Positions 1,828 through 2,496 of a stretch of 30,647 nucleotides of DNA are shown here, in pieces. How positions within the stretch are numbered: position 1 is the first letter of the stretch; every line of letters begins with the position of its first letter. Under the pieces are notes generated by a model. It had not been told where the DNA came from, did no database searches, and was given only the letters and a program-made list of their open reading frames with translations. Source of the DNA: Thermoplasmatota archaeon (GTDB taxonomy: Archaea > Thermoplasmatota > E2 > DHVEG-1); the NCBI GenBank assembly GCA_018824925.1, contig JAHJFH010000026.1, positions 1 through 30,647 on the forward strand, in the 5' to 3' direction. The position numbers and the translations under genes were made by a program.

Positions 1828-1858
1828 AGGTGCTGTGTGTAGGCCATAAGCCTCTTTT
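1828..1858. repeat. Direct repeat copy 1: duplicated 3' end of the RNase P RNA gene (att-like site)
   Basis: aggtgctgtgtgtaggccataagcctctttt matches 2466-2496 (aggtgctgggtgtaggccgtaagcctctttt) at 29/31 positions. Confidence 0.9.
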
Positions 1859-1915
1859 CAACATGAGAAAATGGCTAATTTTTATGAAATTTGAAGACAG
1901 AAGTAACAGGCATAT

Positions 1916-1952
1916 CGAAAATTATATATACCACGGTATACCTAAGTATACT
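1916..1952 (+). promoter_or_regulatory. BRE-TATA promoter and probable autoregulatory operator of the antitoxin-toxin operon
   Basis: cgaaa (1916-1920) followed by attatatata (1921-1930), then palindromes ggtatacc (1935-1942) and agtatact (1945-1952) just before ATG 1961. Confidence 0.6.
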
Positions 1953-1960
1953 ATGATAAT

Positions 1961-2200
1961 ATGAGCACAACAACCATTAAAATACAAAGGGATACGAAAT
2001 CTCAAATTGATCAATTTCGAGAATATAAAAATGAAAGCTATGATGATGTGATTAAAAAATTAATTTATATCGCAAAAAACCTTAAAAAAGAACCTGATCT
2101 TAGTAAAGAGACAATTAGAGCCATTGAACAAGCACGTGAACGAATTAAGAAAGGAAAATTTGTCAGCCAGGAAGTTGCTAAACAACGACTGGGGCTCTAA
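1961..2200 (+). CDS. Archaeal RelB-like/RHH-type antitoxin
   Basis: 79 aa. The N-terminal beta-strand plus helices (MSTTTIKIQRDTKSQI...ESYDDVIKKLI) and C-terminal RIKKGKFVSQEVAKQRLGL are typical of archaeal type II antitoxins that precede RelE genes. Confidence 0.75.
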   Translation: MSTTTIKIQRDTKSQIDQFREYKNESYDDVIKKLIYIAKNLKKEPDLSKETIRAIEQARERIKKGKFVSQEVAKQRLGL

Positions 2201-2203
2201 GAA

Positions 2204-2459
2204 ATGTATGACATTATTTTTGATGAAGAAGCAATAGAATTTTTAGAAAAAATTGAGAAGAATATAAAAAAAAAGAATCTACAATAAAATTATTTCAACG
2301 AAACAAGATCCATTTCATTATTTTGAGCGATTAACTGGAAGAAACGAATTTAAACTTTGAGTTGGAGTATATCGAGTTATTGCTGATATTGATGAGACAT
2401 CAAATAGAATATCCATTCTTGTGATAGGTCATAGAAAAAATATTTATCAAAAAATGTAA
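2204..2459 (+). pseudogene. relE: RelE/ParE-family toxin pseudogene (frameshift plus nonsense)
   Basis: Absent from the ORF track. Removing one A from the A9 run (2266-2274) gives MYDIIFDEEAIEFLEKIEKNIKKRIYNKIISTKQDPFHYFERLTGRNEFKL*VGVYRVIADIDETSNRISILVIGHRKNIYQKM. The TGA at 2358-2360 replaces the Arg of the KLRVGxYR motif, and the GHRKNIY motif is intact. Confidence 0.88.
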
Positions 2460-2465
2460 TTTTTT

Positions 2466-2496
2466 AGGTGCTGGGTGTAGGCCGTAAGCCTCTTTT
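2466..2496. repeat. Direct repeat copy 2 (the functional 3' end of rnpB)
   Basis: Matches 1828-1858 at 29/31 and contains the 3' strands of P4 and P1 of RNase P RNA. Confidence 0.9.

Follow-up and report, generated by a model that had tools for sequence, protein, structure and literature searches.

Here we analyse a 30,647-nt contig of a Thermoplasmatota archaeon (metagenome-assembled genome, MAG, GCA_018824925.1, contig JAHJFH010000026.1, positions 1 to 30,647; this whole stretch is called the window below), in which a 31-bp direct repeat encloses an islet with a toxin-antitoxin pair and the right copy of the repeat forms the 3' end of rnpB, which encodes RNase P RNA. Comparison with relatives makes it likely that the duplicated sequence represents the core of a site used in site-specific recombination, with the rnpB 3' end as chromosomal target (attB), and that the arrays of units stacked at this site are driven by an integrase. 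The islet is one integrase-less cassette, already decaying.

A repeat search of the window gave one 31-nt direct repeat, of which 29 of 31 positions (94%) are identical; the mismatches lie at 1836 (T/G) and 1846 (A/G) and the two copies are 638 nt apart. By our own estimate a 29/31 match is expected about 4e-7 times by chance within 30.6 kb, and the whole MAG holds only these two copies, even when 6 mismatches in 26 are allowed. The right copy belongs to rnpB, since the Rfam model of archaeal RNase P (RF00373) matches window positions 2473-2780 on the minus strand with all of its 288 positions (1-288), at 177.4 bits, the gathering score being 84 (E 2.7e-51). The features concerned are:

1828-1858: displaced rnpB 3' end (29/31 identical to 2466-2496), the putative attachment (att) core where the left unit meets the toxin-antitoxin unit; next to it comes a cassette arm and not the rnpB body
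2466-2496: in-gene copy of the core, formed by the 3'-terminal 29 nt of rnpB and 2 nt beyond, according to the repeat search and the Rfam match
2468-2785, minus strand: rnpB, intact; the RF00373 match with a 5-bp extension of helix P1 on each side, read from the sequence

In the sense of the RNA the repeat reads AAAAGAGGCUUACGGCCUACACCCAGCACCU. From within the conserved ACAAAAAGAGGCUUA block it extends to 2 nt past the 3' strand of P1. The in-gene copy pairs in 8/8 positions with the 5' GUGCUGGG (2778-2785); in the distal copy this P1-pairing stretch has an A in place of a C, which breaks a pair. An initial annotation of this DNA had described the repeat as a duplicated rnpB 3' end that begins in this block and runs through the P1 3' strand, with perfect terminal pairing in the gene and one broken pair in the distal copy, and on all these points it was right. 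The window contains no tRNA or tmRNA genes, and the target is rnpB. To its left the DNA is AT-rich (GC 0.31-0.34 over 1-2500), against a GC of 0.40-0.48 to the right. From the source run, a separately assembled Logan contig of 10,213 nt covers 1533-5000 gap-free and spans both copies, so the structure is no artefact of the MAG assembly. Since the window is one whole contig, the locus is cut off at position 1; the MAG (1.86 Mb, 79.5% complete) has no more cores or arms anywhere in its 375 contigs, and the array runs off the contig end.

The islet between the two cores consists of the following parts:

1859-1908: P' arm of the toxin-antitoxin cassette, made of CAACATGAG, an A/T-rich stretch and GAAGACAGAAG at 1893-1903
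1921-1957, plus strand: putative promoter/operator of the pair, judged from the sequence, with TATATATA at 1923-1930 and the palindrome GGTATACC at 1935-1942
1961-2200, plus strand: antitoxin gene, 79 amino acids, DUF7557/VapB-like, intact (Pfam DUF7557, E 5.8e-8, 32.5 bits against a cut-off of 25)
2204-2459, plus strand: ParE/RelE-family toxin pseudogene (Pfam ParE_toxin, E 3.5e-7 when read through with X at each break)

The layout and the Pfam matches are those of a type II toxin-antitoxin system, but the pair is not intact because the toxin is broken twice, by a frameshift (one extra base in the A9 run at 2266-2274) and by an in-frame TGA (2358-2360) that replaces an Arg invariant in the alignment of six intact homologues of 83-84 amino acids. 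The toxin stop codon (2457-2459) lies 6 nt ahead of the core. A Pfam scan found no integrase in 1-2465 and only a toxin-antitoxin pair between the cores, i.e. the islet is flanked by att sites and lacks genes for integration or transfer, like a cis-mobilizable element (CIME).

The DNA was searched against 60 relatives, and further counts were taken from 108 genomes of the same Thermoplasmata family (uncultured Thermoplasmata/Thermoplasmatota MAGs). Contigs of this family contain many copies each of window segments 1828-1908 and 2466-2495. The core pattern TGGGTGTAGGCCRTAAGCCYCTTT (at most 2 mismatches) occurs in 88 of the 108 genomes, 58 of which have two or more copies with a maximum of 13, and the reversed pattern, taken as control, has no match in the family genomes. 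On every contig the copies are co-oriented. At 48 sampled loci, 111 cores bound 64 units of 0.55-10 kb with a median of 1.15 kb; 31 of the 64 do not exceed 1 kb, and the lengths have modes near 0.6 and 0.8 kb. Much as in integrons, these are arrays of short cassettes that each have their own recombination site. The cargo includes toxin-antitoxin pairs of the ParE/RelE, HicAB and PIN kinds, genes for secreted proteins (beta-helix, lectin and peptidase), and a few metabolic genes. One recurrent single-gene cassette (L023:2617-3912, with homologues in loci L028, L029, L031, L163, L164 and L168) encodes an AAA_14/DUF4143 ATPase, which matches PDC-S01, a candidate defence family of PADLOC (E 7e-107). 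The unit seen in the window, with DUF7557 antitoxin and ParE toxin, is found in at least 12 copies in several genera at 602-614 bp (607 bp in the window), with the toxin stop a few nt before the next core and an A-type P' arm at the opposite end; its neighbours and its position in the array vary between genomes. Homologues of the antitoxin partner the toxin family in cassettes of several other genera. In genome G017 (94% complete, 20 contigs) a six-core array lies on contig C11 (L029, L168), away from rnpB, and the rnpB site on C6 (L167) has a single core with no cassettes within 10 kb.

Alignment of these sites resolves their anatomy. The block of identity runs from about GTGCTGGG to CTCTTT, which is the RNA 3' end, and it is followed either by the rnpB body (CTGTTYTAAC...) or by a conserved arm of about 50 nt. 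This arm follows non-rnpB cores in many genera and comes in three sequence types, all of which terminate in GAAGACAGAAG or GAAGACGTAAT. In the arms behind displaced cores the motif is GAAGAC(A/G)(G/T)AAG. More generally, [AGT][AT]C[AG][GT]AA[AGT] is found 30-39 nt past 67% of the 64 cores that do not belong to rnpB, where 0.02 per 10 nt would be expected, a 33-fold enrichment. The motif is also 10-17 fold enriched left of rnpB-proximal cores, where between the integrase stop (see below) and the core 3-5 iterated arm motifs are spaced about 20 bp apart, as in G020 with AAGCCGTAAAC, AAGGCGTAAAC, GAGGACGTAAAAC and GAGGACGTAAT. Ten core-plus-arm strands, folded as single-stranded DNA, were no better than shuffles (z -0.75 to +0.10), thus these are double-strand core-plus-arm sites rather than attC-like hairpins, and the idea of integron-type sites was dropped. 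Dyad symmetry and polymorphism patterns in the cores gave no clear crossover position; like the protein that would bind the arm motifs, it is inferred and not shown.

Empty and occupied alleles of the site can be compared directly in genus g19, where the interval between a conserved gene of about 776 amino acids and rnpB differs among species. G127 (contig C22) has the empty site, in which flank, core and rnpB follow each other, and the site is occupied by three units in G115 (C47), by two in G128 (C22) and by three with different gene content in G129 (C3). In the alignment the common flank extends to ...TTGTTCTTGAAAAATAAT and the core; then comes the rnpB body in G127, or a type-B/type-A arm in G115 and G128. 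This is attB versus attL, exact to the base. Likewise across genera, a P-type ATPase gene is located about 130 nt from the rnpB end in G031, and in G028 the orthologous flank is at the far end of an 8.5-kb array of three units, the rnpB-proximal one of which contains an integrase. Hence relatives that share flanks have the site empty (G127 against G115 and G128, G031 against G028), as is the case for genomic islands.

The integrase of these relatives (L024:16505-17527, 340 amino acids) has a PF00589 domain (E 4.9e-31) and a SAM-like N-terminal domain, and its closest solved relative is XerA from Thermoplasma acidophilum (5hxy, E 5e-38). Residues R132, K157, H226, R229, H252 and Y261 are invariant in 11 clade members, which places this integrase of the relatives, and no gene of the window, among the tyrosine recombinases. 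The alignment with XerA is collinear and without an IntI-type insertion, and the IntI models are missed by far (TIGR02249 with 78 against 265 bits, NF011946 with 28 against 435 bits). The XerA equivalog NF040815 is not reached either, three clade members scoring 157-181 bits (181 for L024:16505-17527) against a cut-off of 220. At its C-terminus the integrase is about 65 residues longer than XerA; there a variable linker leads to a conserved module of about 40 amino acids (...KLIxxLAxGEIxxExFLxxI...Y), common to the 11 members and absent in XerA.

The clade, defined by at least 45% identity and searched across one genome per GTDB species, has members only on Thermoplasmata-type contigs, one of them binned otherwise, and is present in 20 of 107 family genomes. 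The exception is a 3.9-kb contig binned as 'Candidatus Saccharibacteria' (L193, CAYMMJ010000043.1), which carries a clade integrase (51% identity), a core and the start of an archaeal rnpB, and is probably misbinned. In 13 of the 16 members with enough downstream sequence a core lies downstream of the integrase, in 12 of the 16 as the end of a convergent rnpB, whose 3' end is 90-320 nt away (among others in G028, G036, G021, G034, G075, G093, G104, G091, G095 and G107). Among 12 family-genome cases examined the integrase-adjacent core is the rnpB end itself in 11; in G069 the integrase is followed by another cassette arm and not by rnpB. More distant homologues, at 35-41% identity (families f10 and f4), were found on contigs other than that of rnpB. 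The arm motif subtype tracks the integrase subclade, CAGAAG/CATAAG going with L123-125 and L127 and CGTAA with L128-130, L132 and L136, a co-variation that is expected if the integrase, or a co-evolving partner, reads the arm repeats.

Integrase similarity is out of step with that of the chromosomal neighbour: between G028 and G036 the integrase is 79% identical and a neighbouring chromosomal gene 38%, and between G020 and G034 72% against 35%. There are also integrase pseudogenes: the copies of G010, G034 and G090 have in-frame stops, and G008 has a truncated stump next to rnpB. Discordant identities together with pseudogenes and stumps indicate a horizontally moving element rather than a resident gene. 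A search for virus and plasmid hallmarks found no Pfam matches in most genes of the integrase-bearing units, and no conjugation genes were seen. In two genomes a divergent gene just upstream of the integrase codes for a DUF7557 protein of 76-82 amino acids, from the family to which the window's antitoxin belongs (L159:2157-2387 in G036 and L169:2986-3234 in G010); it could be a regulator or a directionality factor. The rnpB of G008 (L035:8080-8260, G008:C1, a complete single-contig genome) has an insertion of about 62 nt close to the 3' end, with a 14-nt duplication (AGCCTCTTTCTGTT) on its flanks and with arm-type motifs and the C-terminal integrase stump beside it, which looks like the scar of imprecise recombination inside the ribozyme gene.

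These observations can be combined into the following model. A small circular element would carry an attP composed of a P arm, a core and a P' arm. The P arm would have 3-5 iterations of GA(A/G)(G/A)AC(A/G)(G/T)AA(G/A), about 20 bp apart, the core would be identical to the last ~29-31 nt of the RNase P RNA, and the P' arm of about 50 nt would have one more motif. The 340-amino acid Xer-like integrase, with its XerA-type core-binding and catalytic parts and its C-terminal module, would join attP to the rnpB end, by which the element's core would replace the last ~30 nt of rnpB and the old end would be displaced beside the P' arm. As the core copy of the element takes over the gene end, the RNase P RNA would stay intact. 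Repeated insertion at the junction with the rnpB body would push older units outward and build the array, and the finding that the integrase-adjacent core is nearly always the rnpB end fits such an order with the newest unit next to rnpB. The cassette 1828-2465 would have been inserted by an integrase acting in trans from a co-resident or visiting element. The initial annotation had proposed the rnpB 3' end as attB for integrase insertion and had named empty-site alleles in relatives and integrases beside rnpB ends as checks; with integrase linkage, empty sites and recurrent cores all present the proposal is now supported.

From the uniform ends and lengths of the integrase-less units, and from their varied neighbours, we infer that these spread as units with the integrase in trans. 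Tentatively, and as a claim that may well prove too strong, we suggest a gene-capture system at the rnpB end that is functionally integron-like and differently built, in which integrase-less cassettes of 0.6-2 kb, with a double-strand core and a one-sided arm, are inserted, excised and reshuffled singly in trans by a visiting Xer-like integrase that reads the iterated motifs via its C-terminal module.

Several observations weigh against integrase-driven stacking at rnpB. Recombination at these sites is deduced from sequence comparison. The toxin-antitoxin unit has a P' arm and no P arm, such that its competence as substrate is only predicted. The MAG, which is 79.5% complete, contains no member of the integrase clade, its best recombinases being 26-32% identical; without a cognate integrase in window or MAG the toxin-antitoxin unit is non-autonomous, and it fits this that the islet is stranded and its toxin broken. 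The clade is likewise missing from 47 of the 58 multi-core genomes, so many arrays would be stranded for now. Some arrays end away from rnpB, on C11 of G017 and beside hycI in three genera (G021, G013 and G014). At the three hycI-side ends (L027:6831, L032:5168 and L033:9204, respectively) the core is followed by CTGTTT without rnpB and lies about 12 nt downstream of the gene of HycI, a hydrogenase maturation protease; G021 has another, rnpB-linked array on a separate contig, and for the hycI-side core the choice is between a secondary attachment site and a translocated array end. None of 120 core-bearing metagenome contigs is circular as judged by terminal overlap, no viral contig carrying the core was found, and the source run gave no excision, circle or empty-site junction in assembled Logan contigs, which cannot show absence.

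The least unlikely alternative to integrase-driven stacking is that the islet is a decayed remnant of CIME type, an att-flanked stump left at rnpB by an integrase-bearing element that lost its integrase and most of its genes through deletion, the unit itself never having moved alone. For bacteria a three-step process of decay and accretion is accepted as the way in which tandem att-flanked elements arise (PMC5704250), the integrase is missing from most genomes with arrays, its decay is seen in the stops of G010, G034 and G090 and the stump of G008, and the window's toxin is itself decaying. We nevertheless regard such a remnant as unlikely, since the DUF7557/ParE unit keeps the same boundaries and nearly the same length in all its copies while the neighbours differ, and uniform unit ends are not expected from independent deletions. 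That half of the sampled units do not exceed 1 kb, with distinct modes, also speaks against it.

A true integron-like platform would instead have a resident, vertically inherited integrase by rnpB as the equivalent of attI, and promoter-less cassettes with attC-like sites. It is suggested by the short, mostly one- or two-gene units split by a repeated site and rich in toxin-antitoxin pairs, as in sedentary chromosomal integrons, by an integrase that, like IntI, belongs to the Xer-like 'simple' recombinases, and by the observation that within one genus the gene at the distal flank of the array is common and the units near rnpB are different. Yet the integron-integrase models score far below cut-off and the IntI insertion is lacking relative to XerA, the single strands fold like shuffles, and the integrase sits in a core-bounded unit with variable cargo, between which and rnpB a cassette can intervene (G069). 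Its relationships are discordant with the host's neighbouring gene and it occurs in fewer than a fifth of the family genomes; we therefore consider a resident platform very improbable. Scarcely credible at all is a structure made without any recombinase, by local tandem duplication, by an rnpB-derived regulatory or terminator repeat, or by misassembly. All that speaks for it is a short repeat in a fragmented MAG with the contig end 1.8 kb away; the Logan contig covers both copies, dozens of MAGs, drawn from unrelated studies, and more than 120 metagenome contigs share the structure, the junctions are exact, the arms are conserved and an integrase is linked to the site. Generic duplication and assembly artefact had been named in the initial annotation as what would undo its reading; neither came true, with the core occurring 2-13 times in more than half of the family genomes and never in the reversed control.

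Among known systems, the islands and proviruses that tyrosine integrases place at tRNA and tmRNA 3' ends, the Islander/TIGER class (PMC4383910, PMC12424338), are alike in that one end has the RNA gene intact and the other a displaced piece of its 3' part, with the gene regenerated by the element's copy, in forming tandem arrays, and in an integrase beside the att site, which applies to the relatives and not to the window's unit. They differ in the target, which here is rnpB instead of a tRNA or tmRNA gene, in the recombinase, which here is a XerA-like simple one with a C-terminal add-on and without the classical arm-binding N-terminal domain, and in that most units here are integrase-less and only 0.6-2 kb long. 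The TIGER pipeline leaves out islands shorter than 2 kb and islands without an integrase gene; as standard catalogues demand both an integrase and at least 2 kb, these cassettes would be missed. With the site-specific accretion of integrative elements and CIMEs described for Streptococcus and Streptomyces (PMC5704250) the arrays have in common that integrase-less, att-flanked units and integrase-bearing ones form tandems where a target gene ends, and that new elements enter at the attR that holds the gene end. However, CIMEs are held to result from the decay of large conjugative or mobilizable elements (PMC5704250), whereas the units here are minimal, have uniform ends, recur across genera and reside in archaea; their uniformity and recurrence point to propagation as units.

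Integrons, which have also been described in archaea (Ghaly et al. 2022, 10.1101/2022.02.06.479319), similarly have stacked short cassettes, many of them with toxin-antitoxin genes, a Xer-related recombinase, and arrays that often lack a nearby integrase, as in clusters of attC sites lacking integrases (CALINs). Here, in contrast, there is no IntI-specific domain and no folded attC, the sites being double-strand cores with arm-type repeats, the integrase rides in a mobile unit, and the anchor is the end of an RNA gene. The archaeal XerA/dif systems (5hxy, 4a8e) provide the closest sequence relatives, which share the two-domain core and the catalytic residues, but the clade falls below the equivalog cut-off and is longer by about 65 residues at the C-terminus. 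Its occurrence is sporadic, it has spread horizontally, and it is linked to rnpB and not to dif. No publication on rnpB as integration target was found in the literature searched, which is not proof of novelty; Streptococcus papers that matched concerned phylogenetic uses of rnpB only.

With this the RNase P RNA gene, which encodes an essential ribozyme, joins the short list of structural-RNA integration targets, and the integrase clade held responsible is defined together with an unusually legible attP, in which iterated arm repeats accompany the core and the motif subtype matches. Of the sampled units half are too small for standard island finders, and most are integrase-less, thus a sizeable layer of toxin-antitoxin and candidate-defence gene flux in archaea is currently invisible. 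If the gene-capture proposal is true, an exchangeable store of toxin-antitoxin and candidate defence genes would be tied to an essential ribozyme gene. An integrase of 340 amino acids and an attP of about 200 bp are compact enough to reconstitute, which would yield a tool for site-specific integration in archaea and a natural setting in which to test how arm-site control was gained by a Xer-type recombinase.

The remaining features of the array in the window belong to the left unit:

3-974, plus strand: first gene, an open reading frame (ORF) of at least 323 amino acids with winged-helix-like regions, open at the contig end, with a weak Pfam match to DUF7342 only
971-1705, plus strand: second gene, a nucleotidyltransferase-like ORF of 244 amino acids with weak Pfam matches (E 0.002-0.003)
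1706-1827: P-arm-like spacer at the right end of the unit, with CAGAAG at 1742-1747, inverted CTTCTG at 1761-1766, GTCAGAAG at 1771-1778 and GTCATAAA at 1799-1806

The two ORFs overlap by 4 nt. The first clusters with L038:6133-7152 of G024 and the second has its homologue in L038:7149-7883; in G024 this two-gene unit is bounded by a core plus arm at 5768 and the rnpB core at 8056. Stretch 1-1827 is thus a neighbouring unit, which makes the islet one unit of a stacked array. In the spacer CAGAAG occurs twice, and window positions 1740-1857 align to the spacer between integrase stop and rnpB core of G021:C29 and G027:C170. An identity as AbiE was dropped for the left unit, because Pfam and NCBIfam matches are weak and PADLOC gave none; PADLOC has no match for any of the window proteins. 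The full-length homologue of 3-974 in G024 (L038:6133-7152) does have weak PADLOC matches (E 7e-5 to 9e-4) to CARF/Csa3-type winged-helix regions of CRISPR-associated regulators, which the truncated window copy lacks. Within this first ORF, segment 46-422 has two alleles in the source run, as parallel short contigs with 1-6 differences, which indicates strain variation at the array end. Elsewhere in the window, over 2500-24000, GC skew is strongly negative at 2.5-10 kb and 17-24 kb (to -0.51) and positive at 11.5-14.5 kb; AT skew partly mirrors it, and the flips do not simply match gene strand.

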